From a virus (lineage: Duplodnaviria; Heunggongvirae; Uroviricota; Caudoviricetes): a stretch of DNA of 64,000 nt. The stretch is taken from the IMG/VR virus record IMGVR_UViG_3300028603_000003, one strand, 5' to 3'. Of the stretch, positions 2,167 through 54,860 are shown in pieces. The notes under the pieces are model-generated. The model was not told where the DNA came from and did no database searches. It worked only from the letters and a program-made list of their open reading frames with translations. Position numbers and translations under genes: made by a program. Numbering within the stretch: position 1 is the first letter of the stretch; each line of letters starts with the position of its first letter.

Positions 2167-2460
2167 TTGTTAACATGGAATATTGGAAGCCGAAAAAGAA
2201 TGCTAAGCCAAAGTAAAGAAGACATCAATGAGCGGTTTCTAACAGCTTCAAAGTTTGAAATGATTATAGATAAGATGGTGTTCGAGTCAGACTATACATA
2301 TGTCGAAGCCATTCTAGAATACTGTGAAGAAAACTCGCTGGACCCAGAGGACACCGTAAAGTATATTAACTCTAACCTGAAGAAGAAGATTGAAGTAGAG
2401 GCAATAACACAAAACTATTTGCCCAGAAAATCAACTCTTCAATTTGAATTGGAAGAATAA
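2167..2460 (+). CDS. hypothetical protein (occupies the gene 33/dsbA position upstream of gene 59)
   Basis: ORF only. Positional analogy to the T4 rnh-dsbA-33-59-32 cluster. No motif recognised. Confidence 0.3.
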   Translation: MLTWNIGSRKRMLSQSKEDINERFLTASKFEMIIDKMVFESDYTYVEAILEYCEENSLDPEDTVKYINSNLKKKIEVEAITQNYLPRKSTLQFELEE

Positions 2461-5456: not shown

Positions 5457-6047
5457 ATGCGTAAATTAGTCTCAGAACTTCTAGAAGAAGTTGGAAAGTC
5501 AGAGGATAAAGTTGCAGCGATTAAGGCAGCAGCAACACAAAACCCTGCAATCGTCGATGTCATTAAAGTTGCCTTCGATCCTGACTGGGAGTTCAATCTA
5601 TCTCCGAGCTACCCTGACAAGTTTAAATTAGATAGGACAACTCCAGCGGGATTGTCCATCACCGAACTCATCAAGGATCGTAAGAAGCTTCAAATTTTTC
5701 GAAAATTTGGTCCGTATGCAACACTAGACCAATCTCGACGGGAAACAATTTTCTTGACTTTCTTGGAAAGTCTTCACTACTCGGAAGCTGAAGTTCTAGT
5801 GTTTGCGAAGGATCGTGCTCTCGAAGAGCTTTACCCTTGGCTCAACCGAGACTTCTACAATGTTCTTTTTGGTATTACTGAACCTAAGAAGGTCGAGGTG
5901 GTAGAGAAAAAGGAAGAACCCAAAAGTGAATCTCAAGAAGTTTCTGAAAAGCCTACTGAAAAAGTTGAAGAGGTGAAAAGTGAAAATAGCGAACCTGTTG
6001 AAAAGCCTAAGCGGCGCGGAAGACCCAAAAAGTCTGATAGCAAGTAA
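5457..6047 (+). CDS. hypothetical protein with K/E-rich tail ending in an AT-hook-like RGRPKK
   Basis: ORF. C-terminal low-complexity basic/acidic tail. Its central domain is paralogous to the next ORF. Confidence 0.5.
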   Translation: MRKLVSELLEEVGKSEDKVAAIKAAATQNPAIVDVIKVAFDPDWEFNLSPSYPDKFKLDRTTPAGLSITELIKDRKKLQIFRKFGPYATLDQSRRETIFLTFLESLHYSEAEVLVFAKDRALEELYPWLNRDFYNVLFGITEPKKVEVVEKKEEPKSESQEVSEKPTEKVEEVKSENSEPVEKPKRRGRPKKSDSK

Positions 6048-6357
6048 CAAGGTTCTGCAAACTCTTATCGAATACAACTTCGCAAAAGAAAAACCATTTG
6101 ACCTACCCGAAGGCTATCCTGAAGGTAGGTCTTTGTTTTTGAACGAAACGAATCTTATGCAAGAAGCCAGAAGGCTCTACATCTTCACGAAGTCGGGGCA
6201 CCCGACTTTGAAGAAAGTTCGCAGAGAGCAATTGTTCGTAGAGATGTGCGAAGGCTTTTCGAAAGAAGAAGCAGAAATCTTGATTGCAGTCAAAGACCAA
6301 AAGTTGCATGAATTGTATCCGATTTTAGAACAATTGTATTCTAAAGAAGAACAATAA
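5980..6357 (+). CDS. hypothetical protein, paralog of the preceding ORF's domain
   Basis: Alignment: EAEVLVFAKDRALEELYPWL vs EAEILIAVKDQKLHELYPIL. Overlaps the upstream ORF by about 68 nt in another frame. Confidence 0.4.
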   Translation: MKIANLLKSLSGAEDPKSLIASNKVLQTLIEYNFAKEKPFDLPEGYPEGRSLFLNETNLMQEARRLYIFTKSGHPTLKKVRREQLFVEMCEGFSKEEAEILIAVKDQKLHELYPILEQLYSKEEQ

Positions 6358-6392
6358 ATAGTAAATCTGTATATAACTGTTTTGGAATTGAC

Positions 6393-8264
6393 ATGACATT
6401 TAAGAAATTTTTTAAAGAATCCGTAGAAGACTTGCAAGAGGTTTCCCAGTCTCCAGCAAGTCTTGAAGCATTTTTGAACTCTCCTGAAGCAGAGGGCATG
6501 AGATTTGGCTTCGAGGCTGAAGTAATCATGACTGGGTTCGACGATGATAATGACTATGATGAGTCAGAGATTGTAGACGAAGATATTGGTAGGACAGAAT
6601 CTTTAAATGATGTTACGACTTTCTTTGACATCAGGCCCAGTGCCAGAAGTTACATGACCTTAGAAAGTGACTTCTACGAATGGCTTGGCGAAAAAGAATC
6701 TGAGTATACAGAAAACTATATCAGTGATAATCTAACAGACCGAGCAGAAGAATTGTTTAGCAAATTGTCTGCTGAAGAGCAAGAAGAATCTGATGTAGAA
6801 GACTTTCTCGACGACGCTAGAAGTGAATTAGAATCCGAAGCAGAAGAAGATTTTTCCTACAATGATGATTACGGATTTTATGAATTTTGTCAAGCAATGG
6901 GATATAGAACTTATTATGACTTGTCAAACGCATACGGGTTTGATTGGCCCGACGATAGATACGAAAGTTCTTCTTCGGAATATGACGAAGACACTGGATA
7001 TTCTCTAGACAGAGCGGAAGAAGTCGCCTCTGAATTAGAAGATGCATTAGACATTAGTGTAAAGGCATATAACAGTTACCATGGCGGACAACTCGGCGCA
7101 CACTCAGAGTTGTGGAGAATTGAGCCTGATGGCTCTCTGGAGACAAAAGACCCCGAGTCAGAAGCTGGAATGGAGATCATAACTCCAGACGGAGGTTTGC
7201 CGCTCAAAGAAGGCATCACTGCGATGCAACAACTATTTTCTTGGCTCAGAGCTAAGCGAGCCTACACCTCAGAAGACGCGACAACAGGACTTCACATCAA
7301 TCTTTCAATTCCTGACCAATACAAGAAGACGATTGACTATGTAAAGCTAGTGCTTTTCTCTGGTGACGAGTATGTTCTTCAACAGTTTGATAGAGTCGGT
7401 GGATACAACGACGAGTCTGCACGAGAAATCAGAAGGGCGATTGAAAGAGGAAACGTAGAAGAGGCTCTCGGGCTTATGCGGAAAGGGCTTTCCACTGCGG
7501 CTTCTACTTCTCTGATTGCAAGCAACAAAGAAAGATCGGTAACTGTAAACAAGAAAAATAACTATGTTGAATTCAGAGTGGTAGGAAACGACTATTTGAA
7601 TATGGGAGAAGTTGTCAGACTCGCAGTTCTTAGATTCGCCAGAGCGTTGACAATTGCCGCTGACCCAGAAGCATACAAAGAAGAATACGCCAAGAAACTT
7701 TACAAGGTTATAACAAATGTTTCTGGTGAGATGTTGGAAGGTCTTAATCCAGACGTGGTAAAGATGTTTGCACAAACCTTGAGTCAACTTTCTTATGGCC
7801 CACCAACGAGAGAAACCGCGCAAGGCATTGCGAACCTAAAGGCCAGACTTCTACAAACTAGAATGACTCGTAAGTCTGATACCCCAAAGTTGCCTGACCG
7901 AAAAAATGAAAGAGGCAGCACCGAAAGTCAATTCAAGGCGGAAGCTTTGTTAAACGCAAAGGCGTTGGAACTGTTCTTGAATTACAGAAAACAAACTTAT
8001 GGGGAAGATAACTCCAAGCTAAATGCATATTTGTTTTCGCTGAAGAGAGCAGACTTTAGACAAATAGCCGCAGCCTTCTCTGTTTTTTGGGAAGACGTTG
8101 ACGATTTCGGAAAGAATGTTTTGGCAGTTTTCAGCCCGATTCCGGTAATAGAAAAAGAAAAGCCGGAACTTATTGGCAGGACAGCAGGATCACCATTTTT
8201 CATTGAACTTAAACCAGAGAAAAAGAAGATTTTCCTTGCCAATGTTATCCAGAATTACTCTTAA
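6393..8264 (+). CDS. large acidic protein with putative amidoligase-like (GS/GCS-type carboxylate-amine ligase) C-terminal domain; paralog 1
   Basis: N-terminal GFEAEV motif, a long D/E-rich insert, and TGLHINLS. The C-terminal roughly 250 aa is clearly paralogous to ORF 15501..16820 (IAADPEAYKEEYAKKLYK in both). Family call from memory of the amidoligase GxExE/TGxH pattern, unverified. Confidence 0.4.
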   Translation: MTFKKFFKESVEDLQEVSQSPASLEAFLNSPEAEGMRFGFEAEVIMTGFDDDNDYDESEIVDEDIGRTESLNDVTTFFDIRPSARSYMTLESDFYEWLGEKESEYTENYISDNLTDRAEELFSKLSAEEQEESDVEDFLDDARSELESEAEEDFSYNDDYGFYEFCQAMGYRTYYDLSNAYGFDWPDDRYESSSSEYDEDTGYSLDRAEEVASELEDALDISVKAYNSYHGGQLGAHSELWRIEPDGSLETKDPESEAGMEIITPDGGLPLKEGITAMQQLFSWLRAKRAYTSEDATTGLHINLSIPDQYKKTIDYVKLVLFSGDEYVLQQFDRVGGYNDESAREIRRAIERGNVEEALGLMRKGLSTAASTSLIASNKERSVTVNKKNNYVEFRVVGNDYLNMGEVVRLAVLRFARALTIAADPEAYKEEYAKKLYKVITNVSGEMLEGLNPDVVKMFAQTLSQLSYGPPTRETAQGIANLKARLLQTRMTRKSDTPKLPDRKNERGSTESQFKAEALLNAKALELFLNYRKQTYGEDNSKLNAYLFSLKRADFRQIAAAFSVFWEDVDDFGKNVLAVFSPIPVIEKEKPELIGRTAGSPFFIELKPEKKKIFLANVIQNYS

Positions 8265-8273
8265 GGAATTGTT

Positions 8274-9416
8274 ATGAGTTTCAAAAATTTTGTTTTAACT
8301 GAAGCCAAGAAAGAGAAGTTCGGGCATATCGAACACCTTGAGGACTTCATCATCGAAGAGGGTTTGGAAGGGTTTACACTTCTGAAGAAAGCCTTGGATG
8401 GGGTCATTGACTTTTGTAACGGGAAGCCGACAGATGTTGTGGTGAGTCAGAAGATTGATGGCTCACCTAACATCACATTTGGAGTTAACGCAGAAGGTAA
8501 ATTTTGGGTGGGAACCAAATCTCTATTCAACAAGAAGACCCCAAAGATTAACTATACTCCAGAAGACATAAACCGAAATCACGAATCTCCGGGGCTGAAT
8601 AAAAAACTTAACGTTGCTCTCAGATACCTACCAATGATTCGTGCTAAAGGAATTGTTTCCGCTGATATACTATTCACCGAAGACGACATCAAACAGCAGA
8701 CGATAGACAACAAGAAGATGTTGACCTTCAAAGCAAACACTCTTGTATATGCCGCTGAAGTTGGAACTGACATCGCAAGAAAGATTTCTGTTGCTAAGAT
8801 TGGAATCGCGGTGCACACAAAGTTTGAAGGTGATCATCCTCAAAACTTTAAAGCACAATACAACCCTGCAATTTCATTCACCCCACATCAAGCAGTGTTT
8901 GTTGTAAATCCCTATGATGTGACCGTCGCCCCATTCAATCAACAAGAAATGCAAGAGTTGGAAAGATTGGGTAGCATGCAAGTTGACCCAAAAATCTTTG
9001 ACATCATAAGAGAAACAAAGAATGCCCAGATGTTCAAAAAGTATACCAATCAGTTAGTAAGAAACGGACAGATAGAAACTGATCCAAAGTCTTTCTATAC
9101 TGGATTGAAACAGTTCTTCGAAGTAAACGATAACAGAATCTTCAGACACTTTGACGACGAATTGCTGAGTCTTTGTGAAGCATACCTTAACATCATCAAG
9201 ATAAAGAAGATGATTCTGAATCACCTAAGAGACACCGAAGCATTGCGGGCTTTTGTCAAGGATGGCGACTCTTTGGTTCCAGTTAGCGGAGAAGGATTTG
9301 TCGTAGTAGTTGACAATCTACCCATAAAACTAATTGACAGATCGGTCTTTAGCAAAGCAAACTTTACACAAGAAAAGCCTTGGGATCAGCAACCACAACA
9401 AGGAATACCACAGTGA
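8274..9416 (+). CDS. putative nucleotidyltransferase-superfamily polynucleotide ligase-like protein
   Basis: Lysine-adenylation-like motif VVSQKIDGSPNITFG (KxDG). No reliable further alignment to T4 Rnl1/Rnl2 or DNA ligase. Confidence 0.35.
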   Translation: MSFKNFVLTEAKKEKFGHIEHLEDFIIEEGLEGFTLLKKALDGVIDFCNGKPTDVVVSQKIDGSPNITFGVNAEGKFWVGTKSLFNKKTPKINYTPEDINRNHESPGLNKKLNVALRYLPMIRAKGIVSADILFTEDDIKQQTIDNKKMLTFKANTLVYAAEVGTDIARKISVAKIGIAVHTKFEGDHPQNFKAQYNPAISFTPHQAVFVVNPYDVTVAPFNQQEMQELERLGSMQVDPKIFDIIRETKNAQMFKKYTNQLVRNGQIETDPKSFYTGLKQFFEVNDNRIFRHFDDELLSLCEAYLNIIKIKKMILNHLRDTEALRAFVKDGDSLVPVSGEGFVVVVDNLPIKLIDRSVFSKANFTQEKPWDQQPQQGIPQ

Positions 9417-10408
9417 TCACACAAAAACTAAAACAAGACATTGTAGCGATTCTAGAAAACAAATTTGAAGAAGACGTTAGCGTTAGAAAGGTCGCAGTAG
9501 AAAAGTCTGACCAACTGATGAAGAAATTCGATACTCCCGAAGGAACCTATTGGTTTTATCAGAAAAGGAATCTTAGGTCTAACGACAAAGACAAGATTTA
9601 CTACTTGTTGGATAATCGTGGAAATTCTATTAAGACTTGGAAGAACTCCGATCTAGACTCTATAAAGAACGATTTGAAGAAGCTTCTTCGTTTGTCTGAA
9701 GAGGTCTTGGACGAAGACTTTCGCAGTATGGCTATCGGTGCAGCCGGTCTTGGTCTTGGGGCAATCGGTGCCTATCAAATGATGGACAAAGAACCTCCGA
9801 AAGAACCGACACCGCAAGTAAGGCAGGTTCAGCAAGGGGATATCAAGAAGCCGGAACTCAAAGCCCCTGTAGCCAAGAAAAATGTGCTATCTGGAGCAAT
9901 TGATTCTCTGTCTGAGATGGAGAAATACTTCGTAAAGAAAGCAATTCAAAACGGGATCGAAGGCGTCGAGCTAGTGGCGTTCTTGGCACAAGTCGCCCAC
10001 GAGACAGGAAATTTTTCTTCTATGGTTGAACAAGGTCCGAAGAAATACTTTAGAAGATACGAACCAAAATGGAATCCTCAAACCGCCAAGATTCTCGGCA
10101 ACGTCAAACCCGGAGATGGTGAAAGATTTAAAGGAAGATCATTTGTTCAACTAACGGGTAGAGATAACTACCGAAGAGCGGGACAAGCACTTGGACTTCC
10201 ACTAGAACAAAAGCCACATCTATTAGAGAATCCTTCAGTTGGATTCAAGGCTTCTTTGTGGTATTGGAACACTAGAGTTAAATCTAAGACAAACAACTTC
10301 GAAGATATTGAACAAGTCACCAAACTAATCAACGGTGGGTTGAACGGGTTGGAAGATAGAAAGCGAAAATTCGAAAAGTACCTGTCACTACTAGAACCTT
10401 CTAAGTAG
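9380..10408 (+). CDS. glycoside hydrolase family 19 endolysin (chitinase-like lysozyme)
   Basis: GH19 catalytic signatures FLAQVAHETGNF and GRSFVQLTGRDNYRRAGQALGL...KASLWYW. N-terminal hydrophobic stretch MAIGAAGLGLGAIGAY. The true start may be internal. Confidence 0.75.
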   Translation: MGSATTTRNTTVITQKLKQDIVAILENKFEEDVSVRKVAVEKSDQLMKKFDTPEGTYWFYQKRNLRSNDKDKIYYLLDNRGNSIKTWKNSDLDSIKNDLKKLLRLSEEVLDEDFRSMAIGAAGLGLGAIGAYQMMDKEPPKEPTPQVRQVQQGDIKKPELKAPVAKKNVLSGAIDSLSEMEKYFVKKAIQNGIEGVELVAFLAQVAHETGNFSSMVEQGPKKYFRRYEPKWNPQTAKILGNVKPGDGERFKGRSFVQLTGRDNYRRAGQALGLPLEQKPHLLENPSVGFKASLWYWNTRVKSKTNNFEDIEQVTKLINGGLNGLEDRKRKFEKYLSLLEPSK

Positions 10409-10445
10409 TTGTTAATGTTAACAACAAATTTATCGATAGACAAAA

Positions 10446-12860
10446 ATGAAGAATTTCAAATCCCTGCTTTCAGAACTAAGCAATAATGCACCAAAAGAAG
10501 CTGTGTTCACCTTTGGAAGATTCCAAGGTCTGACTATCGGCCACGAAAAGCTTTTGGACTCTCTATTCGCACAACCGGGCGATCACTTTGTTTTTATATC
10601 CCAGACAAAGGATGATCAGAAAAACCCACTGACGGCAGAGGATAAGAAGAAGTTTCTTGTTGCTGCATACCCAGAAAACAAAAAGTCTTTCTCCATCGAG
10701 TATAGGACTCCCTTTGACGCGCTACAGTCTTTGATTGAAAGGGGCTACACTAAAATCAAGATGATCGTCGGCGAAGATCGAGTAGAGACTTTTAAATCAT
10801 CTTTCGACGGATTCGATTTTCCTGTCGAAGTTAAATCCGCTGGCGATAGATCAGAAGACGGAAGCAAAGTTGAACAGGCAAACGGACAGGCGATTCGCGA
10901 TCTGGCGCGTGCTGGAGCACTAAAGGATTTCAATAACCTTGCAATGTCAAAGCTAGACTCTGACAAGAAGCTAGCGATGTTCAACGAAATCAGAAAGGCT
11001 TACGGAAAAGATTCTGTAAAGATTTCAAAGGCAGAGCAGGTAAGAGAGGATTACGTTGCCGGAAAGATTTTTAATCTTGGGGATTATGTCTCAGAGGGAA
11101 CAGAACAATTCAAGATCATAGATAGAGGGTCTAACTATGTGAGGGTTGTAAACCGTGAAGGTAGGGTTTCTAGAAAGTGGCTAACAGACATCGAACCTCA
11201 CCGGCCAGCAGAGAAAACCTTCGCAGAATCGTTTAAACCCGCTTCGAAGGACTCAGTCTTCACCGTTAATGGCTACACACCAAAGTTCCACTCAAAGGCT
11301 CCTGTGCGGGCTTTTGAGAAGTCTATGGACGTGCAAGACCAGTATGCATTGTTGGAAGCGGTAAAGGAAACCGAAAAGCTGTTCAATTCCCTATCGCTCA
11401 AAGAAATGTATTCTGCATTCCAAAGATCAGGAGAGTTTTTGGAGAAGCTTGGTGTGGTTGAACTACATGAATATCGGAAGAGTTTTGAAACTGATATTGC
11501 CAAAAAACTGATCGAAAACGTTTCTTCAATTGGCGAAGTCTTCGATCACGACAAAGAAAAAATTGTGCAGTTCTTCGCAGACTTGGTTGGTGTAAATAAA
11601 AACCTAACTTTGGAATCAACAATCCAAAGATGCGTCAACAAAATTAATAACTGCGTTCTAAGCGAAGCAGAAAAATCTGTGTTTGTGCAGATCATTGACC
11701 TATTGATTTCGGAAGGCTTTGAGTTTGATTTCTACAGCCTAAAGTTTATTCGAGAGTGCTCAGTAGAAGAGGGAACCGACAGAGACTTGTTGTTGTTTGC
11801 GGATCAACTCATCGAGGGCATGACATTCGAAGACATTGTCCCCCTGTACGAAGAGAAAGACTTTGTAATCATTACCGAAGCATTTGGTAGGAAGACTGTA
11901 AAGGTTGAACAGCCACTAGACGACAGAAAGATTCAGCGCAAGGCTAAACAGATCGCAGTTCAATACATGAAGCAAAGGAAGTCTAGAAAAGCCGTTGACC
12001 AGTTGACGACTGCTGAGAAAAAGAAGATTGAAGAAATCGTCGGACAGAAGGGATCAATCCTGACAATGATTTCTAAGAAGCTTGGAAAGAAGATTAGAAA
12101 GATCGAAGCCGAAAGACTTCTGCCACCAGAACCTGTCACGCCACAAGAGCTAGTAAAGGAAGAAGCTGGTGAAGAGTACGTCGGTATCCACTATGGCAAG
12201 ACTCCGGGTGTAGGCTCTCTGTCTGGAAGTATGTGGGGCACAGGGGCCAAGGGCGCAGAGAAGGAAAGAGTTATGAACTCTTCTGACAAACGGCTGCGCA
12301 AAAGGGTCTACTTCTATCTTCAACAAACTCCCAACACACTACCAAAGCCAGAGGCAGAGGTAAGTGGAGTTCACGTATATAGAGCAAAGCTGAATAACAT
12401 CTATGATGCTACAAACGATCCAGAAGGAATTTTGAAAAGACGCAAACCCGGAACAGATTTGGAGACTGCAATTCTAGACGCGGGATACGACGGCTATCTA
12501 AACAGAGAGTTCATGGGTGGCGCGATTGTTGTTTTGAATAAGGACAAAGTAGATGTTGATTACCTCGGAACAAGAAGTGAAGCGCAGGAGAAGGTTGGAC
12601 CTATTACAGCACCTAACCAAGAAATCAGAAACTCAGGAATCAAAAAGTCAAACACTCCAGCAATCATCGACTTCAGACAAACAAGAGATGGATTCGAATC
12701 TGGATTGCTCAAAGGCGACGAATCACTATTCTTGATTAAGAACAAGAAAGAGATGGCTGAAAGATTCCCTTCATATGACATGAGAATGGGTAGAGCATTC
12801 TTCTCAAACGAGACTGAAAAGGATGAGTTTGTAGAATGGTACAGAAAAATAAATGGCTAG
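10446..12860 (+). CDS. 804-aa protein with N-terminal HIGH-motif nucleotidyltransferase (NMN/cytidylyl-transferase-like) domain and an uncharacterised 600-aa extension
   Basis: FTFGRFQGLTIGHEKLL matches the G-x-F-x-x-x-H-x-G-H signature of NMNAT/CTP-transferase-fold enzymes. No motif recognised in the remainder. Confidence 0.5.
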   Translation: MKNFKSLLSELSNNAPKEAVFTFGRFQGLTIGHEKLLDSLFAQPGDHFVFISQTKDDQKNPLTAEDKKKFLVAAYPENKKSFSIEYRTPFDALQSLIERGYTKIKMIVGEDRVETFKSSFDGFDFPVEVKSAGDRSEDGSKVEQANGQAIRDLARAGALKDFNNLAMSKLDSDKKLAMFNEIRKAYGKDSVKISKAEQVREDYVAGKIFNLGDYVSEGTEQFKIIDRGSNYVRVVNREGRVSRKWLTDIEPHRPAEKTFAESFKPASKDSVFTVNGYTPKFHSKAPVRAFEKSMDVQDQYALLEAVKETEKLFNSLSLKEMYSAFQRSGEFLEKLGVVELHEYRKSFETDIAKKLIENVSSIGEVFDHDKEKIVQFFADLVGVNKNLTLESTIQRCVNKINNCVLSEAEKSVFVQIIDLLISEGFEFDFYSLKFIRECSVEEGTDRDLLLFADQLIEGMTFEDIVPLYEEKDFVIITEAFGRKTVKVEQPLDDRKIQRKAKQIAVQYMKQRKSRKAVDQLTTAEKKKIEEIVGQKGSILTMISKKLGKKIRKIEAERLLPPEPVTPQELVKEEAGEEYVGIHYGKTPGVGSLSGSMWGTGAKGAEKERVMNSSDKRLRKRVYFYLQQTPNTLPKPEAEVSGVHVYRAKLNNIYDATNDPEGILKRRKPGTDLETAILDAGYDGYLNREFMGGAIVVLNKDKVDVDYLGTRSEAQEKVGPITAPNQEIRNSGIKKSNTPAIIDFRQTRDGFESGLLKGDESLFLIKNKKEMAERFPSYDMRMGRAFFSNETEKDEFVEWYRKING

Positions 12861-13698
12861 AAAGTTAATCGAAAAAACATGCGCAGAGTGTGGGAGCCTG
12901 TACTCTACTAGATTAAAAACGGAGTGCTGCTCAAAATCTTGTGCTAATAGAAAGTCTGCGAGAGATAGGAAACTTACAATCGATCCTGACAGTGGCTTAA
13001 CTCTGACAGAGCTTTATCATAAAAGATCAGTAGAATCTTTGCGAGAGACATATTATGGGAGCGAATCTCACAAGAATGCTGCAAGACAAAATATTTTAAA
13101 AATGGACAGAGCAGAGGCAACAGCCAAGGCGACAGAAACTAAATCCAAGGTGGATGAAGACGGGTTAACCTTGGCACAAAAGTCCACCCAAAAAGCTATA
13201 AAAACTAAAATAGCTAATGGCATGATAGTATGCGCAGAACAAGTAGAACCATTCTATAAATACACAAGAGAAGTAAGGGTCATGACAGAGAGAAACCTAA
13301 AGAGTTGGTCTGTGGATAGACTCGAACAGCGAGGCAGGCACACGTATCATGCAGACCACATCTATAGCATCTTTGATGGCTACCACAACAATGTGCCACC
13401 AGAAGTAATAGCCAATATTAAAAACATTAGGTTAATACCTGCTAAAGAAAATTTGCAAAAACAATCAAGAAGTGACATTAGTTTGATGGAGTTGTACAAG
13501 TTAGTTAACCAAAACTTTAACGAAACTGAAAATTTGGCTGAAGAACGGAAAGTTATTAAAGCTGCGCCTCACAGCCTTAATGGGAAGTCTTCGTGTAATG
13601 TGTGTGGTAAAATAACCAACCACGGAAACATAAAGAGATGGCACAATGAAAATTGCAGATTCTGGTCTTCACCAAAAGTTTCAGACTTAACAAAATAA
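12853..13698 (+). CDS. HNH endonuclease-like protein (free-standing homing endonuclease candidate)
   Basis: N-terminal Cys cluster CAECG...CCSKSC and HNH-like HADHIYSI...N...IRLIPAKEN. Confidence 0.5.
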   Translation: MARKLIEKTCAECGSLYSTRLKTECCSKSCANRKSARDRKLTIDPDSGLTLTELYHKRSVESLRETYYGSESHKNAARQNILKMDRAEATAKATETKSKVDEDGLTLAQKSTQKAIKTKIANGMIVCAEQVEPFYKYTREVRVMTERNLKSWSVDRLEQRGRHTYHADHIYSIFDGYHNNVPPEVIANIKNIRLIPAKENLQKQSRSDISLMELYKLVNQNFNETENLAEERKVIKAAPHSLNGKSSCNVCGKITNHGNIKRWHNENCRFWSSPKVSDLTK

Positions 13699-13713
13699 CA
13701 AGGATATCAAAAT

Positions 13714-15417
13714 ATGCTTATTCAGATTCTAGAAGAAGCAATGTCACACGAAGACATTCAAACTTGGGCAGAACTCCAATCATACGCTGGTTATGATGTG
13801 GAACTGACCATTAACGAAGATGTGGCTACTGTGGTCTTGGAGAGCAAGGGGGAGAAACAAAAAGTCCTTGCCAAGATCGAGAAGCCTCTCGAAGACGGGA
13901 AGACCCCTGAAGAGAAGAAAAAGAAAATCAAAGCAACTACTGTTGCTGACGAGGAAGGGTTAAAGGACATCGAAGTTAACGTTATCGGTTCACACTACAT
14001 TTACAACCACGGCAAGAAGCCAGCAGGTAATGGTAAGTGGGCTTTCGGTGTTGGCTCTCGCGAACCAAAAGACCTTTTGTTCTTTGATGGTGCCTATTCA
14101 CAAGTTTCCAAGCAAGCAGTCGAAGCTGCAAAGAAGAAAGCCAAAAAAGAAGGTAAGACTGCGGTTAAACTCTATGTCATGGAATCCAACGTTCCTTCCA
14201 TGGAAGTCGATTACAATATCTCAAAGACAGGCAAGCTAGTCGAGTGCAAGCTAAGTGTTGACGGAAAGTCTTCTGTAATTTCTGGGTTGAGCGAATCTGC
14301 TGTGGAAAAGAAGGCTCTAGAGTTAATCGAGAAAGTCGAAATTGAATTCTTGGAAGAGCGCAGTCTAACAAAGAAAGAAACAAAGAAAAAGGAAAAAGTC
14401 GTGAAGGGAATCAAGAAATCAGCAAAAGACATGAAGGCCCGTTACGGAAAAGATTGGAAGTCTGTAGCATATGGCGCAGCAACAAACATTGCCAAGAAGA
14501 GCAAACTAAAAGAGTCCTGTGACACAGAAAAAGAAGAACTTGAAGAAGCAAAAGAAAGAATCTTCAAGCTTTACTTCTTCGACAAAGACGAGCCACAAGA
14601 TGTCAGATCAGTCGAGGTTAGAGCAGAAAACCGCAAGGACGCGATGGACTATGTCTATTACAAGTTTGGTCCAGTCAGAATCCAGAGAGTTCAAGTTCTA
14701 GATGAAGCTGAAAATCCAGATGGTGTATTGATTGCTGAGCAAGTACAAACATTCGAAATTGAGTACGAAATGCAAAGCAACGACGGCACATCTAAGGGAA
14801 CCACAAAGTACAAAGCTCTGAGTGCTGGTGAGGCCCGGACAAGATTCCTAAAAGATAATCAAGGCAAGAGAGTTACTATTCGTAACGTTAGGCCCGCAAA
14901 GCCGGGTTTGAATGAGGCCGCAGGAGTTGCTATGGACGTTCATGACGTTGCAAAGCTTATTATGAGAGAAGCTTTGAAGTTTGCAAATGAAAGACTGTCA
15001 CAGAAACAAGACGACGAGTTTGATCGGGATACTGAACTAGAAGACGGCGTCAACGACTACCTTGACTTGGTTATGCATCATCTAGAAGACAACCGAGTAG
15101 AGTTGACCAGCCCAGAAGCAATCAAGTCTTACCTTGGCGAAGACTATGAATCTGGACAGTACGGGTCAAGTAAAGATGAAGTAATCGATAACCTAATTTC
15201 GAAATACCTAGATGGTGAAGAATCAGAAGAACTTCGCATTGCACTGTCAGACGCTTTCGAAGCTGGAGCAGAACTTGGAACAGGCTCGGAGCAAGAGTCC
15301 GAATGGGAATCTGAAGACATCGAAGAACTTGAAGATGAACCTAAAGAGAAGAAGGTTTCAGAGTCAACAGTCTCTATCTACGCCAAGCTAATTTCTCAAA
15401 ACAAAGCTAACATGTAA
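13714..15417 (+). CDS. hypothetical K/E-rich 567-aa protein with acidic C-terminus
   Basis: ORF with low-complexity charged regions. No motif recognised. Confidence 0.5.
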   Translation: MLIQILEEAMSHEDIQTWAELQSYAGYDVELTINEDVATVVLESKGEKQKVLAKIEKPLEDGKTPEEKKKKIKATTVADEEGLKDIEVNVIGSHYIYNHGKKPAGNGKWAFGVGSREPKDLLFFDGAYSQVSKQAVEAAKKKAKKEGKTAVKLYVMESNVPSMEVDYNISKTGKLVECKLSVDGKSSVISGLSESAVEKKALELIEKVEIEFLEERSLTKKETKKKEKVVKGIKKSAKDMKARYGKDWKSVAYGAATNIAKKSKLKESCDTEKEELEEAKERIFKLYFFDKDEPQDVRSVEVRAENRKDAMDYVYYKFGPVRIQRVQVLDEAENPDGVLIAEQVQTFEIEYEMQSNDGTSKGTTKYKALSAGEARTRFLKDNQGKRVTIRNVRPAKPGLNEAAGVAMDVHDVAKLIMREALKFANERLSQKQDDEFDRDTELEDGVNDYLDLVMHHLEDNRVELTSPEAIKSYLGEDYESGQYGSSKDEVIDNLISKYLDGEESEELRIALSDAFEAGAELGTGSEQESEWESEDIEELEDEPKEKKVSESTVSIYAKLISQNKANM

Positions 15418-15435
15418 TGTTTGCTGGCATGACGA

Positions 15436-15464
15436 AAATGGGGCCACTGGCCCCATTTTGTTTG
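15436..15464 (+). terminator. rho-independent terminator
   Basis: aaaatggggccactggccccatttt hairpin followed by a T-run. Confidence 0.55.
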
Positions 15465-15469
15465 AGAAG

Positions 15470-15477
15470 TATAAATA
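15470..15477 (+). promoter_or_regulatory. T4-type late promoter box TATAAATA
   Basis: Exact TATAAATA about 24 nt upstream of ATG 15501. Confidence 0.4.
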
Positions 15478-15500
15478 TTAGTAAAAGGAAGGGTATCTAA

Positions 15501-16820
15501 ATGCGCGTGGTAAATGAAGTAAAAATGTCTCCGTCCGTTTTCTCTAAAGGTCTAGTTACCGCTGGAGACAAGGGAGTTCTTATCGGATTTGAGTTTGAGG
15601 TTGGAGTTCCTTTGGATAACCAAGATGAACTCAACATTACCTCTTCTCGATGGACATATCTAAAAAGTATCCAAGAATTTCTGTCGTGGATCAAGGCTTC
15701 CGCAGACAGCGTAAGCGAGGACGTTGAGTTCGAAATCTCCGACGATTACACAAAGTGGGCCAAACAAAAGACAAAAGACTTTTTGGAGTCTCTTAGTGAA
15801 GATGGTTTGGACAAGCTAACATCTTTGTACGATGAAGTCTATGACAAACACTCATTGGTCAATATGACAAAGTTCGTAACATTGGGTGCGTCTACTGAAC
15901 TTCAAGCTAGACTGGCTGACTTTCTTGAGCTTAGTGAGTATGAAGAAACTGACGACTACCTTCTATTCATGGATCACATTGACGAAGTTACTAGATCGAA
16001 GCTAAACTCATTTGTTTCCGATTCCTATGGAAACATTGCTGGACTGTTTAAGAAATTTGGATTGAAATATTCGCCACAAGAAAAAGACGTTGACGATAGG
16101 TATCACTTGATTAAGAATTCTGTTAGGGATGTGACTCAAGCCGAGATTGCCAAGACACAAGTTCACGTCATTGACATCGCAAAGACAATTACAAAGAACC
16201 TCACAGACTGGTATATCGAACCAGACACAACGATTAGGCCGGACGACAAATTCAATTATACTGGAGCAGAAGTTGTCAGTCCTCCGCTTAAACCAAATGA
16301 AGCCATGGCAGCACTTGATTCATTCTATGCAGCATCCAAAAAACATGGATGGGTAACAAACAAATCAACCGGACTACACATCAACGTTTCTATTCCAGCC
16401 AAGATTGATGTTTTAAAGCTAACACTATTTTTGGGTGACAAGTATGTGTTGAAGTCATTTGGTAGAGAAGGTTCTGCGATGGCTCGCTCTGTTCTAGATG
16501 ATCTAGAGAAGGGAGCAGCGTTAGATAGCATTGTTGGTCTGACACCGGATAATATCAAGCGTCTTTCTCTGTCGGCAAAATACTTCGCAGATAACCACTA
16601 CGCATCTATTAGCTACGAAACAAACGTAGACACATTGAAAAAGAACAAGTATATCTCTTTCAGGCATGCTGGAGGGGACTACTTAAACGAGATGCAGAAG
16701 ATTAGAGATACGATTGGTAGGTTCGTTACAGCCATGATTATCGCTGCCGATCCAAATGCTTACAAAGAAGAGTACATGAAGAAACTTTATAAACTCGCAT
16801 CACCAAAGTCCGCTGAATAA
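15501..16820 (+). CDS. putative amidoligase-like protein, paralog 2
   Basis: GFEFEV, TGLHINVS and IAADPNAYKEEYMKKLYK motifs shared with ORF 6393..8264. Confidence 0.4.
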   Translation: MRVVNEVKMSPSVFSKGLVTAGDKGVLIGFEFEVGVPLDNQDELNITSSRWTYLKSIQEFLSWIKASADSVSEDVEFEISDDYTKWAKQKTKDFLESLSEDGLDKLTSLYDEVYDKHSLVNMTKFVTLGASTELQARLADFLELSEYEETDDYLLFMDHIDEVTRSKLNSFVSDSYGNIAGLFKKFGLKYSPQEKDVDDRYHLIKNSVRDVTQAEIAKTQVHVIDIAKTITKNLTDWYIEPDTTIRPDDKFNYTGAEVVSPPLKPNEAMAALDSFYAASKKHGWVTNKSTGLHINVSIPAKIDVLKLTLFLGDKYVLKSFGREGSAMARSVLDDLEKGAALDSIVGLTPDNIKRLSLSAKYFADNHYASISYETNVDTLKKNKYISFRHAGGDYLNEMQKIRDTIGRFVTAMIIAADPNAYKEEYMKKLYKLASPKSAE

Positions 16821-16866
16821 TTTTACCTAAATAGGTATAAACAAACCTTTTATAACAGGATACAAA

Positions 16867-17547
16867 ATGGATCGTCAAACACAAACCAGAGTATACGACG
16901 CGATTGCTCAGGTTCTGACCAATCAAGGCAGAATCAAAGAAGCAGTAGAAAGCGTGGTGTCAGAGAGAACTGACAAGTCAGGTCGTGACCTCTCTCAAGT
17001 AGAGTCAATGGAACGCTGGCTAAAGCCACTTAAAGAGCTTCTAGAAAGTTCGGTGTCGCCTAACGCTAAGCAACAGTTCATTCGTGAATACACAATGTGG
17101 GTTCGCTCTTTCGGACAGTTCTACTCAGCAGCAATCAAATCAAACCCCGGACTCGCAGAAGTATTCGGCACACTTGAAGATGCATTCAACATCCAAGTGA
17201 AAATCCAAAATGGAAAGACCACGAAGAACGCAAAGGATGTCAGAAAAGAATCTGTGATCAAGGAAGCAGAAGGCGACTCAGACGAGTTTGTTGACACTTT
17301 CATTGACATGATTCAAAAGATTCCTAGCTCTTCATTGAAGTCTCGTTTTGCATATCAGTTCGAGCGTTGGAAAAGAGAAAACCCAACTGAGGTTGCTCAA
17401 CTCGAAAGAAACTCACCCACTATTAATTCTTTCCTAGATAAAATTCTAACTACCATTAACCCAGATATCGACCAAGATGTTGCGGACACTGAAGTTCCTG
17501 CTGACGAAGTCGATGCAAATTCAGAAGTGCAAAACAAAGGAGTATAA
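16867..17547 (+). CDS. hypothetical protein
   Basis: ORF only. Confidence 0.45.
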   Translation: MDRQTQTRVYDAIAQVLTNQGRIKEAVESVVSERTDKSGRDLSQVESMERWLKPLKELLESSVSPNAKQQFIREYTMWVRSFGQFYSAAIKSNPGLAEVFGTLEDAFNIQVKIQNGKTTKNAKDVRKESVIKEAEGDSDEFVDTFIDMIQKIPSSSLKSRFAYQFERWKRENPTEVAQLERNSPTINSFLDKILTTINPDIDQDVADTEVPADEVDANSEVQNKGV

Positions 17548-17552
17548 CAAAA

Positions 17553-18056
17553 ATGTCAGCATGGACAAGAACCACACCCCCAACATGGTTTAGCACCGCA
17601 GTTGTCGGAAAAATGGGATGGGAAAATCCCACTACCGGAGAACTTTTGGTAGCAATCTCAAACCTACAAGCAAAGAACGCAGACGAAGTTGATCCAGTAA
17701 CAATCGTTGCAGTTACAGCAAATAACGAGCCTCTAGTTACTGGCGATTCACTGGTTGTAGTTGTACAGTTCAGCGAAGCAGTTGCCGTAATTGGAAGCCC
17801 AGAAATCGCTTTGACTGTTGGTGCAGAATCTCGGGTACTACAATTTGACTCTGCCAATTCTACGGCAACCCATGTCGCATTTAGCTACACTGTAGTTGAA
17901 GATGACGTAGCTGCGGCAGGGACAATTTCTGTGGACACTTCGATTGATCTCACAAACGGTGGAGTGTATGACATTCTTCCGGGCGGAGCACTAAGCCCAG
18001 TTGCGGCACCAATCACTTTCGTCGCACCCACAACGGCCCTAGTTTCTTTTAACTAA
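17553..18056 (+). CDS. hypothetical T/S/V-rich beta-type protein
   Basis: ORF with composition typical of Ig-like/structural accessory domains. Confidence 0.4.
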   Translation: MSAWTRTTPPTWFSTAVVGKMGWENPTTGELLVAISNLQAKNADEVDPVTIVAVTANNEPLVTGDSLVVVVQFSEAVAVIGSPEIALTVGAESRVLQFDSANSTATHVAFSYTVVEDDVAAAGTISVDTSIDLTNGGVYDILPGGALSPVAAPITFVAPTTALVSFN

Positions 18057-18070
18057 AATAAGAGTTTATA

Positions 18071-18532
18071 ATGTCTGGTCAGGTAAAATTTTCTTCAATG
18101 CCAGTGGCCCTATCCGTAAATGCGTCGGATAGGGTTCCACTACTCGTTCCTACAAGCAGCCATCAGAATCAAACAATCACAATTGAAAATTTGTTTGATG
18201 CTGTATCTGTGCCTGTAAGATTTACTGGACCTTTTGTTCATCAACAGGCACCAGACATTGTAAATTCAACTTCTGTTATTTCTCCAACTAGCAAATATGT
18301 TAGTTTGGAAAACTCAAGCGCGGCAGCGATCAATGTTAATCTAACTTCCGGCGTCGAAGGTCAAGAGGTTACATTCATTGCAAAGACTTTGACTTCTGAT
18401 GTTTACGTTTTTCCGGTTCAAAAAATTGGCTTCACTTCAATCAGATTTGCGTCTGTTGGCGCAACCGCAACACTAATATTCATTGGCTCGAATTGGGTAG
18501 TAAAGTCATATTACAATGCGATCATTAGTTGA
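18071..18532 (+). CDS. hypothetical S/T/V-rich protein
   Basis: ORF only. Confidence 0.4.
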   Translation: MSGQVKFSSMPVALSVNASDRVPLLVPTSSHQNQTITIENLFDAVSVPVRFTGPFVHQQAPDIVNSTSVISPTSKYVSLENSSAAAINVNLTSGVEGQEVTFIAKTLTSDVYVFPVQKIGFTSIRFASVGATATLIFIGSNWVVKSYYNAIIS

Positions 18533-25900: not shown

Positions 25901-26658
25901 TTGGTATCGAGTTGGCTAAAGAAAAGGGTTGCGCACCAATCTTTAACGAATTCACAGAGATTGACGGAAACTTAGAGAGCAACAAAACTTTGTGGGCCAA
26001 CGGCAAGTACATGCAAAGAATTTGGGAAGTTGCTCCACATCTGAAGGCACAGGCAATTCAACATGGTTGCAGATTTACGCACCACACTTCAATTGCTCCA
26101 ACAGGGACTATTTCGCTGTCAGTCAACAACAATGTGAGCAATGGAATTGAACCTTCTTTCTCTTTGAAATACACCAGAAACGTTATCGAGCAAGGCAAGA
26201 AAACAAAGAGAGCGGTTGATGTTTATAGCTACGAGCTTTTGTTGTATAAACACATTACAGGCTCTGACGAAGCGCCAGATTACTTCAGCACCTCGGACAC
26301 TGTAAAAACCTACGAGCACGTTGACATTCAGGCGGCAGCACAATATTGGTGTGATAGCAGCATTAGCAAGACAATCAACGTGCCCTCCGACATTCCGTTC
26401 GAAGAGTTCAAAGAAGTTTACATTTATGCTTATGAAAAAGGACTGAAGGGTGCCACCACATTCAGGTTTAACCCTGCCGCATTCCAAGGCGTACTTGTAA
26501 AGGAAGATGACTTGGCTAAGACCGAGTATGTTTTCCGGCTGGAAGATGGCTCAGAAGTTGTGGCTAAGGGTAACGATTCAATCGTTTATGACGGAGAGGA
26601 ACACACCGCAGCGAACTTGTTCGATGCGATTAAGGAAGGCTACTATGGCAAGTTTTAA
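22959..26658 (+). CDS. ribonucleotide reductase catalytic subunit, interrupted by an intein (23223..24206) and a group I intron (24882..25566). Exon 1 is 22959..24881 and exon 2 is 25567..26658
   Basis: RNR motifs ILSNAG...SLIN-C, GCGIGYEFSTLRPK, SGPLPFMDIFD, GGRRGAQMATFAVWHPDVEDFI. NPCG at the exon 1 end and EQPLPPEGSCLLGSVNV at the exon 2 start together rebuild the canonical NPCGE...CNLGS[LI]N motif. Class (I versus II) is not resolved. No ATP cone. Confidence 0.85.
23223..24206 (+). mobile_element. intein with LAGLIDADG homing-endonuclease domain inside the RNR gene
   Basis: Starts CLAGDTPVV (block A) and has a TKDH block B. Two LAGLIDADG motifs: GFIHGLVYGDGSD and YLRGFIAGVLATDGSV. Ends ..AFAIANGMKTGQ, followed by +1 Cys. 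Host sequence resumes CTVSEIIEDSM. Confidence 0.75.
24882..25566 (+). mobile_element. group I intron in the RNR gene, carrying an HNH endonuclease ORF
   Basis: Exon 1 ends in U directly after NPCG, followed by an in-frame TAA. Exon 2 starts with GAA (Glu) right after a G at 25566. No RBS or ATG for exon 2. The intron sits in the most conserved codon string. Confidence 0.7.
25097..25513 (+). CDS. intron-encoded HNH homing endonuclease
   Basis: Multiple CxxC pairs plus an HNH core (DLDHIDP...N...CKNCH). Confidence 0.7.
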   Translation: MQKCKMRFCHRRIMRECASCKESIPIEEFTWRGGGRKGLQSTCKFCTLERLREHRAYTRRLVGRWKLRKGCSRCGFKAEHSCQLDLDHIDPTTKNSKCNGRAFEPSWSVKRIKEELSKCVVLCKNCHALKTYENKDYL

Positions 26659-49530: not shown

Positions 49531-49531
49531 A

Positions 49532-53113: not shown

Positions 53114-53419
53114 ATGAGTGTGAGGCTTTATCGGGCCATGTGTGACGAAGAGTTCCAAGATACAATGAAACACAAATCATTGTCTTGGAACTCCAAGTTT
53201 AAATGGTTTGGCACAAAAGACTTTGTCCTGTCCAGAGTCAGAGATGGGAAATTCAACAACTCAAAGTTTGTTCCTGATCGTTACAAAAATCTTCTAGAAT
53301 TCGAAGTCGAAGAAGAAAGCCTGAAACACTTTTCAAAGTGTGGCAATCGAGAATTCATGTTGAATGTGCGCAAGGCACCTCTAGTGAAGATTGTCTCAAT
53401 CAGGGTTCTAAATAGTTGA
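53114..53419 (+). CDS. hypothetical protein
   Basis: ORF only. Confidence 0.35.
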   Translation: MSVRLYRAMCDEEFQDTMKHKSLSWNSKFKWFGTKDFVLSRVRDGKFNNSKFVPDRYKNLLEFEVEEESLKHFSKCGNREFMLNVRKAPLVKIVSIRVLNS

Positions 53420-53420
53420 A

Positions 53421-54860
53421 TTGTCTAAAAACAACGGAACAATAAAAATGCAATTCAAAGATTTCATTAGTGAAGCAAGACGCAATCCAGACCAGAATCC
53501 AAAGATTCCTGTGATTCAACAATTGAAGAAAATCTTCAAGGACAACTATGAGTACGACGATCCCAAAGATGTTGTAAGGGAAGGCCACGACGATCTATAC
53601 TTTGTCTCCATGACCAAAGTGGACAAGCTTGGCATCAATCCAACCTCAAAGTATAACACTCCACTGGGAATCTATGCATATCCATTGTCATACGTTCTAT
53701 ATCAAGTTGAACTGAGAAACGATTCTGAAGGAACAGAAACTTTAAAGAGTTTGCCGTTTGCTGGAGGAAGCCCATTCGCAAACGTATTCAAGACTGACTA
53801 CAACAGAAACCTTGTCTGCCTGAACAAAGAAAACTTTGATTCTGTTACTTTCAACCACTATGTTCGGAAAGTTGGCAACTTCCTTGCACGCTTCAGAATC
53901 GCACAAATGGAAAAGCGTTTCGTCGATAAGATGGACGACGAGAAGCGAGAAATCTATTGGAAGAATTCTGTTGACATGGTCGAAGAATGGGCGGATAAAT
54001 CAGAAGGCAGTGCCAGAGTTCAAACTTGGGGAGGAAGATTCTGGTACGTCACAATGAAAGCTGCCATCATGATGGCAATGTCTTCTGGCAAAGAGCAGAA
54101 GGAAGGCAAGGTCTCTCCAGATTCTTTGCTTTGGAATAAGCTATTCCGAGAGATTGGGATTGATGGTGTAGTTGATTATGGTGAAGGCATCATTCACAGC
54201 GCAGAGCCAACTCAAGCCGTGTTCTTCTCCAAAGAACCAATTGAAGTTGTCGCAAGGTTTGACAACAAAGATTACAAGCCATCTGATGCTGCGGCTGCGA
54301 AAATTTTAGGCAAAGCAAATGAATACGTTATTGTTGGGTTGCTCTACGATGACCAGAAAAAGGCTGAACGAGGGGCCAATCTTTTCAAATCATTTTTCAA
54401 GAAAGATTTGGGAGAGCAGTTTAAGTCTTCCGGGTTTTCTATTATGCGGAATTTCGGGTTCATATACAATGTAATAGGAAACATTTTAAATAAAGTGTAC
54501 GAAGAGGCAGTGCCTTCCCCAAAGCAAAGCAAAAAGGCGGTTGACTTGATTCAGAAGTCGATGGGCCTAGCAAATATAAAGCAGCTAGATCAGGAGTATA
54601 TCAAAAATACTGTATACGTTAGCCCATTTGTCAAGGTTTTCCCTCTACTACAGTTCGCCTCGGACGAGAATCTAGAAAAGCTAGTGAGAGAAAATCTTAC
54701 TACTATTTTTGACGAAGTTGGCAACTCGCCAGAAATCGAGGATGCAGTTAAAGCTCTGCCTAGAGTTTGGCAAGCAATTGTAGATGTGGTAGAGTATAAG
54801 AAGGGCAAAGGAAACTTTGAAGCAACATTCGACAAATATAGGCACTGGAAACATGATTAA
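53421..54860 (+). CDS. hypothetical 470-aa protein with CTS-like N-terminus
   Basis: TTG at 53421 or ATG at 53448. From ATG 53448 it begins MQFKDFISEA, matching the shared N-terminal motif. Confidence 0.45.
   Translation: MSKNNGTIKMQFKDFISEARRNPDQNPKIPVIQQLKKIFKDNYEYDDPKDVVREGHDDLYFVSMTKVDKLGINPTSKYNTPLGIYAYPLSYVLYQVELRNDSEGTETLKSLPFAGGSPFANVFKTDYNRNLVCLNKENFDSVTFNHYVRKVGNFLARFRIAQMEKRFVDKMDDEKREIYWKNSVDMVEEWADKSEGSARVQTWGGRFWYVTMKAAIMMAMSSGKEQKEGKVSPDSLLWNKLFREIGIDGVVDYGEGIIHSAEPTQAVFFSKEPIEVVARFDNKDYKPSDAAAAKILGKANEYVIVGLLYDDQKKAERGANLFKSFFKKDLGEQFKSSGFSIMRNFGFIYNVIGNILNKVYEEAVPSPKQSKKAVDLIQKSMGLANIKQLDQEYIKNTVYVSPFVKVFPLLQFASDENLEKLVRENLTTIFDEVGNSPEIEDAVKALPRVWQAIVDVVEYKKGKGNFEATFDKYRHWKHD

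Follow-up and report, generated by a model that had tools for sequence, protein, structure and literature searches.

The DNA analyzed here is the whole 64,000-nt stretch (one strand; hereafter, the window) of the tailed-phage record IMGVR_UViG_3300028603_000003 (Caudoviricetes), which has a G+C content of 43% and carries almost all of its genes on the + strand. Four large proteins encoded in it begin with a similar peptide of 9–10 residues, here called the tag: an amidoligase (amidoligase-1), a ligase-like DUF6267 protein, a fusion protein with a cytidylyltransferase/NMNAT-like domain, and a 470-aa protein whose gene lies 37 kb from the cluster formed by the other three (Table 1). The window also encodes a T4-type ligase, gp32, RNase H, primase, ThyX, a split class I ribonucleotide reductase (RNR), an RnlA-like ligase and gp59, and a gp33-type coactivator, which indicates that T4-type late transcription is in use. 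The nearest gp32 proteins are those of cyanomyoviruses and Methylophilales phage Melnitz (about 41–43% identity), and by its gene content this uncultured marine phage is T4-like. A megablast search of the region against GenBank phages returned no match, so there is no annotated near relative among them. A 105-kb Logan contig (L006; SRR31093302_12947), from a close relative, is syntenic, carrying in the same order ligase, gp33, gp59, gp32, RNase H, DUF6433, two amidoligases, DUF6267 and GH19, followed by an 801-aa cytidylyltransferase, an ART-PolyVal protein, a 594-aa protein and a third amidoligase.

Table 1. Positions of the tagged genes, their tags, promoter-like motifs and neighboring genes in the window.
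Feature	Position	Strand	Remarks
Amidoligase-1 (predicted cargo)	6393..8264	+	623 aa; Pfam Amidoligase_2
Tag of amidoligase-1, MTFKKFFKE	6393..6419	+	From ORF translation; N-terminus MTFKKFFKES
DUF6267 protein (predicted cargo)	8274..9416	+	380 aa, ligase-like; Pfam DUF6267
Tag of DUF6267 protein, MSFKNFVLTE	8274..8303	+	From ORF translation
Cytidylyltransferase/NMNAT-like fusion (predicted cargo)	10446..12860	+	804 aa; PHROG match
Tag of cytidylyltransferase fusion, MKNFKSLLSE	10446..10475	+	F4, L7, L8, E10
470-aa protein (predicted cargo)	53448..54860	+	No family; large metagenomic family, 649 matches
Tag of 470-aa protein, MQFKDFISE	53448..53474	+	Family-wide core ARRNPDQNPK directly after tag
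gp33-type late-transcription coactivator	2167..2460	+	Pfam Trans_coact, E=6.3e-21
Late-promoter-like motif AATAAATA(G)	6353..6360	+	40 nt upstream of amidoligase-1 ATG; consensus match
Late-promoter-like motif CTAAATA(G)	53408..53414	+	40 nt upstream of ATG 53448; consensus match
Strict T4 late-promoter consensus TATAAATA	15470..15477	+	31 nt upstream of amidoligase-2
GH19 muramidase/chitinase-like protein	9413..10408	+	Hydrophobic segment MAIGAAGLGLGAIGAYQMM; ~130-aa N-terminal domain
281-aa open reading frame, untagged	12853..13698	+	phrog_5104, function unknown; H-x-D-H...N looks HNH-like by eye
567-aa acidic protein	13714..15417	+	Starts MLIQILEEAMS
Amidoligase-2 paralogue	15501..16820	+	439 aa; Amidoligase_2, 27.0 bits, cutoff 22

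Translation of the open reading frames (ORFs) confirmed the four N-termini reported in a first-pass annotation of this DNA (starts at 6393, 8274, 10446 and 53448). The size of 479 aa given there for the last protein is that of the ORF from an upstream TTG at 53421, whereas translation from the ATG at 53448 yields 470 aa. The pattern it proposed, M-x-F-K-x-F-[ILV]-[ST]-E, fits the 470-aa protein alone when taken literally and all four when the spacing is flexible; likewise, its [L/I]-x-E at residues 8–10 is present in the DUF6267 and cytidylyltransferase tags, while the motif falls at 7–9 in the 470-aa protein and is replaced by F-K-E in amidoligase-1. That the four proteins are otherwise unrelated was upheld by blastp after removal of the first 12 residues (E>3 among them), the only related pair among the proteins compared being the two amidoligases, at 38% identity.

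The narrow motif FK.[FLY][FILV].{1,2}E occurs four times in the 20,640 aa of the 128 ORFs taken into the count, each time at residue 3–4 and never internally. A broader expression derived from T4 and cyanophage tags (M, 1–2 residues, [FYWL], 2 residues, [FYWLM], [ILVFM], 1–2 residues, E) was applied to every ATG, GTG and TTG in six frames with at least 40 codons after it, and matched the four tagged gene starts and one internal TTG only. The expected number of tag matches is ~0.39 per 128 N-termini against four observed (P ~7e-4 to 1e-3, from internal windows and shuffles). The nucleotides encoding the tags differ, as had been claimed: identity between the four is 50–60%, the amount imposed by the common amino acids, and the 40 nt upstream of the four genes were unrelated to each other in a DNA comparison. 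The tag is therefore not a DNA repeat, and an origin of the common 5′ ends by repeat or recombination was ruled out. In orthologues on a related contig, the tag codons carry synonymous changes (TTC/TTT, AGT/AGC, CTG/CTC, GAA/GAG), and the amino acid replacements are conservative only and lie at two variable positions. The synonymous changes point to selection on the peptide and not on the initiation context.

Mullaney and Black reportedly described the T4 internal proteins' (IPs') capsid targeting sequence in 1996. In the T4 record, IPII and IPIII both start MKTYQEFIAE, and the N-termini of Alt, gp22 and gp21 read MELITELFDE, MLKEQLIAEA and MNEPQLLIET. The first 10 residues of IPIII are enough for encapsidation, residues 4 and 7 acting in targeting and residues 8 and 10 in processing (PMC9026906; the sequence is also reviewed in PMC3012670). 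The cytidylyltransferase tag, with F4, L7, L8 and E10, has exactly this register. The other three are one residue shorter at the targeting positions, which are F3 and F6 where T4 has Y4 and F7 and the cytidylyltransferase F4 and L7; these residues are followed by V7 and L8-T9-E10 in the DUF6267 protein, by I7 and E9 in the 470-aa protein and by F7 and E9 in amidoligase-1. The [L/I]-x-E processing motif is thus L-T-E, L-S-E and I-S-E in three of the tags. Amidoligase-1, with F-K-E at 7–9, has a second, canonical L-Q-E at residues 14–16, which ends at nt 6440 and abuts the conserved core VSQSPASLEAF.

A search of related phages for the same N-terminal motif, which the first-pass annotation had suggested as a check, showed that distant homologues of all four families carry tag-like N-termini. 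Amidoligase-1 (Pfam Amidoligase_2, PF12224, E=3.4e-8, 34.1 bits, gathering cutoff 22) has 145 homologues, mostly with tag-like N-termini, and the family starts are mostly MRY[ST][EQ]I..., MRAKEFIAE or MKYLEITEQ. In all 92 of those with a recognizable core, [L/I/V]-x-E stands directly before that core, [VIL]x[MQ]SPxxL (LxE in 46, IxE in 44, VxE in 2), at the end of an N-terminal extension of 9–38 aa. The DUF6267 protein matches its family over the full length (PF19782, E=3.6e-77, 260.7 bits, cutoff 27), and K60-x-D62-G63 is invariant in 30 homologues; its best Foldseek matches were RNA ligases, none significant (E at least 0.03, template modeling score about 0.2), and a profile and sequence search of the PDB gave no match. 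Among its 104 homologues, in which the conserved core starts (N/K)xHLEHLED, those of ~400 aa mostly carry an extension of 10–25 aa (e.g., MKSFKAYLKE, MLSFKEILNE, MKSLNTFLVE, MTTFKNFLIE), and about 20 are without a tag and start at the core, as in MKNLHIEHPED. The presence or absence of the tag in this family indicates a separable, portable module.

The 804-aa protein belongs to PHROG 3041/395 ('cytidyltransferase', E=6e-42) and contains an HxGH-type GRFQGLTIGHE; its Pfam CTP_transf_like score of 16.9 bits is under the cutoff of 21. The family consensus, built from representatives with at most 50% mutual identity, reads MKNYKQLIKE-LPSKK-VVFAFGRFQPPTxGHE, that is, tag, linker and core. No family was found for the 470-aa protein in Pfam and PHROGs searches. 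Nearly all of its 649 matches start M-[RK]-x-x-[ED]-[FI]-[ILT]-x-E followed by ARRNPEQNPK, as in MRAYEFITEARKNPEQNPK. Across the families, a strict form of the tag is found at 8–35% of homologue N-termini vs 0.2% of internal Met, and a loose form at 27–72% vs 1.5%. A position-specific scoring matrix (PSSM) made from the distant homologues of one family ranks window proteins of the other families 1–5 among 1774 starts (z=4–5), the DUF6267 protein scoring lower because of its two-residue spacer. In AlphaFold2 models the predicted local distance difference test score (pLDDT) of residues 1–10 is 48 in the DUF6267 protein (core ~94) and 49 in the 470-aa protein, with cores at about 90, and the tag is modeled as a loosely attached helix outside the folds. 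The DUF6267 and nucleotidyltransferase (CTP_transf_like) domains are fused in the metagenomic homologues P0080, P0081, P0085 and P0088, and the nucleotidyltransferase is fused to an amidoligase in P0327. Genes for the three adjoin in many phages. Both facts suggest that the three probably act together, in one pathway.

Several further observations concern these families. Residues 575–720 of the 804-aa protein match giant proteins of 2000–3900 aa (P0388, P0391, P0413 and P0481; 43–58% identity), which resemble polyvalent proteins. Members of the amidoligase and 470-aa families on two very large phage-like contigs, L014 (JGI Ga0597921_000001, 522 kb) and LR756501 (735 kb), have tag-like N-termini (MRYNEIINE...); GenBank phage records otherwise contain no member of the 470-aa family. 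At 6201–11248 of contig L013 (JGI Ga0207193_1000069, 160 kb), four adjacent + strand genes start MKISEILVEQ, (..)MKLSEILRES, MKSHEFLPE and MKITEILTE. By these N-termini they are a second tagged cluster, with a variant consensus, in an unrelated phage contig.

Mass spectrometry has detected tagged cytidylyltransferase homologues in the virion proteomes of three T4-like cyanophages, S-SZBM1, S-CREM2 and S-SCSM1. In CsCl-purified S-SZBM1 virions, 'one enzyme (cytidylyltransferase)', S-SZBM1_140, was identified by liquid chromatography–mass spectrometry (PMC9146016); its N-terminus is MRFRQFIIEA. The adjoining DUF6267 homologue, S-SZBM1_141, starts at the core, has no tag and is absent from the virion list. 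Of the three tagged S-SZBM1 proteins, the published list of 30 includes one, an enrichment that is not significant alone. The NMNAT-like ORF91 of S-SCSM1, a virion protein, starts MKSFLQFLKE and lies within the virion-protein cluster ORF89–93, in the same genomic neighborhood. For S-CREM2, whose virion proteome is given with coordinates in Table 3 of PMC10665884, a genome scan found the tag at seven annotated starts, and five of these proteins are in the virion vs 52 of 219 overall (hypergeometric P=0.009): gp6, a SAM hydrolase (MKDFDSFLEE); gp13 (MKDLHSFLTE); gp14, a kinase (VKRFDAFLTE); gp136 (MQTFSMFFSE); and gp154, a cytidylyltransferase (MKNFSSFLTE). Two further virion proteins were considered and set aside. 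In S-CREM2 gp12 ('Cas9-like') the sequence from residue 17, LRFASFMAE, is tag-like, but its first codon, CTG, gives no support to a miscalled start. The C-terminal half of the 804-aa protein has no similarity to S-SZBM1_139, which is detected in virions.

Late-promoter-like motifs were located on both strands. On the + strand the strict consensus TATAAATA has two occurrences, one within a gene at 13255 and the other at 15470. It had been claimed that amidoligase-2 alone among these genes has a T4-type late promoter immediately upstream; this is true of the strict form, whereas the variants AATAAATAG at 6353 and TCTAAATAG at 53408 each stand exactly 40 nt before a tagged ATG (6393 and 53448), which weakens the caveat drawn from promoters. 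A further motif, CCTAAATAG at 16827, is 40 nt before 16867. There are 20 copies of TAAATA on the + strand and 3 on the - strand, and 5 of 13 ATAAATA/CTAAATA sites lie 31–40 nt upstream of a gene start, where ~0.4 would be expected by our own estimate. Late promoters of the forms [A/T]ATAAATA and CTAAATA have been described in T4-like phages, CTAAATA in Aeh1 (PMC1524935). Orthologues in the syntenic contig carry the same late motifs, including the one upstream of the amidoligase-1 orthologue. No late motif was found directly upstream of 8274 or 10446, and these genes would have to be co-transcribed.

Taken together, the T4-like character of the phage, the match to the T4 capsid targeting sequence, the portability of the tag and the detection of tagged homologues in relatives' virions provide good, though indirect, support for head packaging and clipping. 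The reading put forward in the first-pass annotation, that the tag is a capsid targeting sequence and that its bearers are hence packaged in the head, has gained from the register, the conservation among homologues, the modularity and the virion data from relatives. We therefore consider it probable, at roughly 0.7, that the tag is a T4-type capsid targeting sequence and that the enzymes are packed in the head, clipped and injected with the DNA. Transcription of the genes would start, wholly or in part, from late promoters of the gp55/gp33 type. The N-terminal amphipathic helix, with its aromatic residue at 3 or 4 and hydrophobic pair at 6/7 to 7/8, would bind the prohead scaffolding core, so that the enzymes become enclosed, and a gp21-type prohead protease would cut after the Glu of [L/I/V]-x-E. 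Predicted cut sites are E10 in the DUF6267 protein and the cytidylyltransferase, E9 in the 470-aa protein and E9 and/or E16 in amidoligase-1. Mature enzymes would be released inside the head, leave it together with the DNA when a cell is infected and be active ahead of all phage gene expression. For this phage, we infer scaffold binding, the presence of the protease in the genome, cleavage, injection, the timing of expression and the role in the host.

A number of points weigh against this reading. In the available proteomes the tag is neither necessary nor sufficient for detection in virions: S-SZBM1_191, S-SZBM1_192, S-CREM2 gp30 and S-CREM2 gp175 are tagged yet not reported there, and S-SZBM1_139 and S-CREM2 gp12 are present without a clear tag at the annotated start. 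The detections of homologues amount to 2–3 peptides and could include co-purifying protein, and they come from relatives, this phage being known from its DNA alone. The window does not extend to the head genes, including those for the prohead protease and scaffold, and related contigs were covered within ±10 kb of a gene. Relatives do encode the protease (S-SZBM1_178, S-CREM2 gp143), and its presence here is deduced from the T4-like core genes. The tagged genes are surrounded by genes for replication, and the evidence for promoters consists of a consensus match of 7–8 nt. The resemblance to T4 is confined to a short motif, amidoligase-1 has F and not L or I at P3 of its first Glu, and the conserved Glu could belong to the core of each family.

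Other explanations of the tag were weighed against the same evidence. It could be a docking or regulatory handle that has nothing to do with the capsid, through which the enzymes are assembled into one complex, or a pro-sequence cut for activation in the cytoplasm. A short amphipathic helix would suit such a function, and three of the families are joined by gene fusions (P0080, P0081 and P0085; P0327) and are neighbors in many phages. The 470-aa protein, however, is encoded far from the cluster, the tag matches the T4 sequence at the experimentally defined positions, and in S-CREM2 it is carried by a SAM hydrolase, a kinase and small proteins that are functionally unrelated and have in common that they were detected in the virion; we regard a docking or activation function as unlikely. 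An even less probable explanation is that the tag does direct the proteins to the prohead, where they stay or act as assembly or structural parts, modifying for example scaffold, capsid or DNA, with no injection. The T4 core proteins gp67, gp68, gp22 and gp21 also have short N-terminal hydrophobic segments containing Glu, and up to the packaging step this explanation largely overlaps with packaging for injection. Against it, mature virions of relatives still contain tagged enzymes after CsCl purification, and T4 IPs with this type of tag, as well as Alt, are injected (PMC9026906, PMC3012670).

The first-pass annotation had itself offered a common translation-initiation context as a cause of the shared N-terminus. 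In this A+T-rich phage the ATG is often followed by Lys and Asn codons, and the motif is short, so that favored A/T-rich early codons, or chance, might be thought sufficient. This idea did not withstand the comparison of orthologues, in which the conservation is at the amino acid level and the codons differ synonymously. The key Phe, Leu, Ile and Glu positions use different codons also among the four tags, the tag is kept across homologues of 30–35% identity, and neither the excess of matches over expectation nor the lack of internal matches to the narrow motif agrees with chance. We judge initiation context or chance to be very improbable, the most improbable of the explanations considered here.

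Packaging by a capsid targeting sequence has parallels in several known systems. The T4 proteins IPI, IPII and IPIII likewise carry an N-terminal peptide of ~10 aa on otherwise unrelated proteins of a T4-type phage, with the same key spacing (aromatic at 4, aromatic or hydrophobic at 7, I/L at 8, E at 10) and the [L/I]-x-E prohead-protease motif. They differ in consensus (Y-Q-E-F in T4, F-K-x-[FL] here) and in being small basic proteins, whereas the cargo here would be enzymes of 380–804 aa, so far known from sequence. T4 Alt, an enzyme of 682 aa, resembles the proposed cargo in its large size and in having an N-terminal propeptide; it is packaged, processed by gp21, injected and active at once on the host. 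Unlike that cargo, it has an N-terminus that falls outside the tag expression, and the window has no ADP-ribosyltransferase (ART) gene at the syntenic position. In the phiKZ-like/SPN3US giant phages the propeptides are long and the cleavage motif is S/A/G-x-E, and we know of no common decapeptide described for them. These phages are similar in that many of their head-internal proteins have propeptides, which a prohead protease related to that of T4 cleaves off after Glu (PMC5694885, PMC7411985). The polyvalent proteins of Iyer et al. (2017; PMC5512222) are enzymes of several domains for which delivery along with the phage DNA has been predicted, and there are links to them in the domain at residues 575–720 of the 804-aa protein, which recurs in giant proteins, and in the ART-PolyVal protein of the syntenic contig. 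The window proteins differ in having one to few domains, and an N-terminal tag is not part of the definition of polyvalent proteins. Further counterparts are the NMNAT/cytidylyltransferase-like virion proteins of T4-like cyanophages S-SCSM1, S-CBWM1, S-SZBM1 and S-CREM2 (PMC9602691, PMC9146016, PMC10665884), homologues of the 804-aa protein's N-terminal domain that occupy the same genomic neighborhood and bear the same tag; the 804-aa protein differs by about 550 extra C-terminal residues.

The mechanism is thus the known one of T4, while the cargo is new and apparently unreported in the searchable literature. The cyanophage proteome papers (PMC9602691, PMC9146016, PMC10665884) report detection and mention no N-terminal signal, and an open-access full-text search found no paper tying capsid targeting sequences or propeptides to cyanophages, apart from a T4 review. 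Also new, as far as that literature shows, are the conservation of the tag among marine T4-like phages and the explanation that it would give for 'non-structural' enzymes in cyanophage virions; the amidoligase, DUF6267, NMNAT-like and 470-aa families are probably marked by it as injected cargo. If this is true, an N-terminal rule would predict the head-carried, injected proteins of cyanophages of the T4 type, of other marine myoviruses and probably of some huge phages, and would explain the repeated finding of 'non-structural' enzymes (NMNAT-like, SAM hydrolase, kinase) in cyanophage virions. Three or four enzyme families would be nominated as first-minute effectors of host takeover or counter-defense, and natural targeting peptides would become available for loading foreign proteins into capsids other than those of coliphages. 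More doubtful, and on balance unlikely, is a wider proposal, that the tag marks a widespread, sequence-readable injected set in T4-like marine and much larger uncultured phages and that the three clustered enzymes are a pre-packaged pathway; tag-like N-termini are found on homologues in contigs of 160–520 kb. Such a pathway might rebuild or modify a nucleotide cofactor, or repair or modify RNA, within seconds of injection, and would then counter abortive-infection defenses ahead of phage gene expression.

The remaining genes of the cluster differ from the tagged ones at their N-termini. The probable GTG start of the GH19 protein overlaps the TGA stop of the DUF6267 gene as GTGA and gives the N-terminus MITQKLKQDIVAILE, which is not a tag; the orthologue in the syntenic contig starts with an ATG, at MITEKLKQDIQAILE. 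Lying within the cargo cluster, this protein could be a virion-associated or membrane-anchored lysin. The 281-aa ORF occupies the site at which the syntenic contig has its Alt-like ART-PolyVal gene (17115–18161, 348 aa, E=2e-22, start VKVTESFIETY), and a packaged ART may have disappeared from the window, or been replaced, at 12853–13698. For the 567-aa protein, no family was found in Pfam and PHROG profile searches. Its orthologue in the syntenic contig (18175–19959) starts MIVQILEEAMS, and the hydrophobic, Glu-containing N-terminus, loosely like those of T4 Alt, gp22 and gp21, may hint weakly at another type of propeptide. Amidoligase-2 has no aromatic tag, a short MRVVNE standing directly before its core, VKMSPS.

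Directly upstream of the cluster are two tandem DUF6433 paralogues (5457–6047, and an ORF ending at 6357 whose start is uncertain). Besides the ligase-like DUF6267 protein, the window encodes a T4 RnlA-like RNA ligase (49259–50728; Pfam RNA_lig_T4_1, E=1.6e-10). The large subunit of RNR is divided between two ORFs, at 22959–24884 (Ribonuc_red_lgC positions 3–213) and 25555–26658 (positions 213–522), separated by ~670 nt that contain a 138-aa ORF (25097–25513). The first RNR ORF has a weak LAGLIDADG match, and the split looks like the insertion of an intron and/or an intein.

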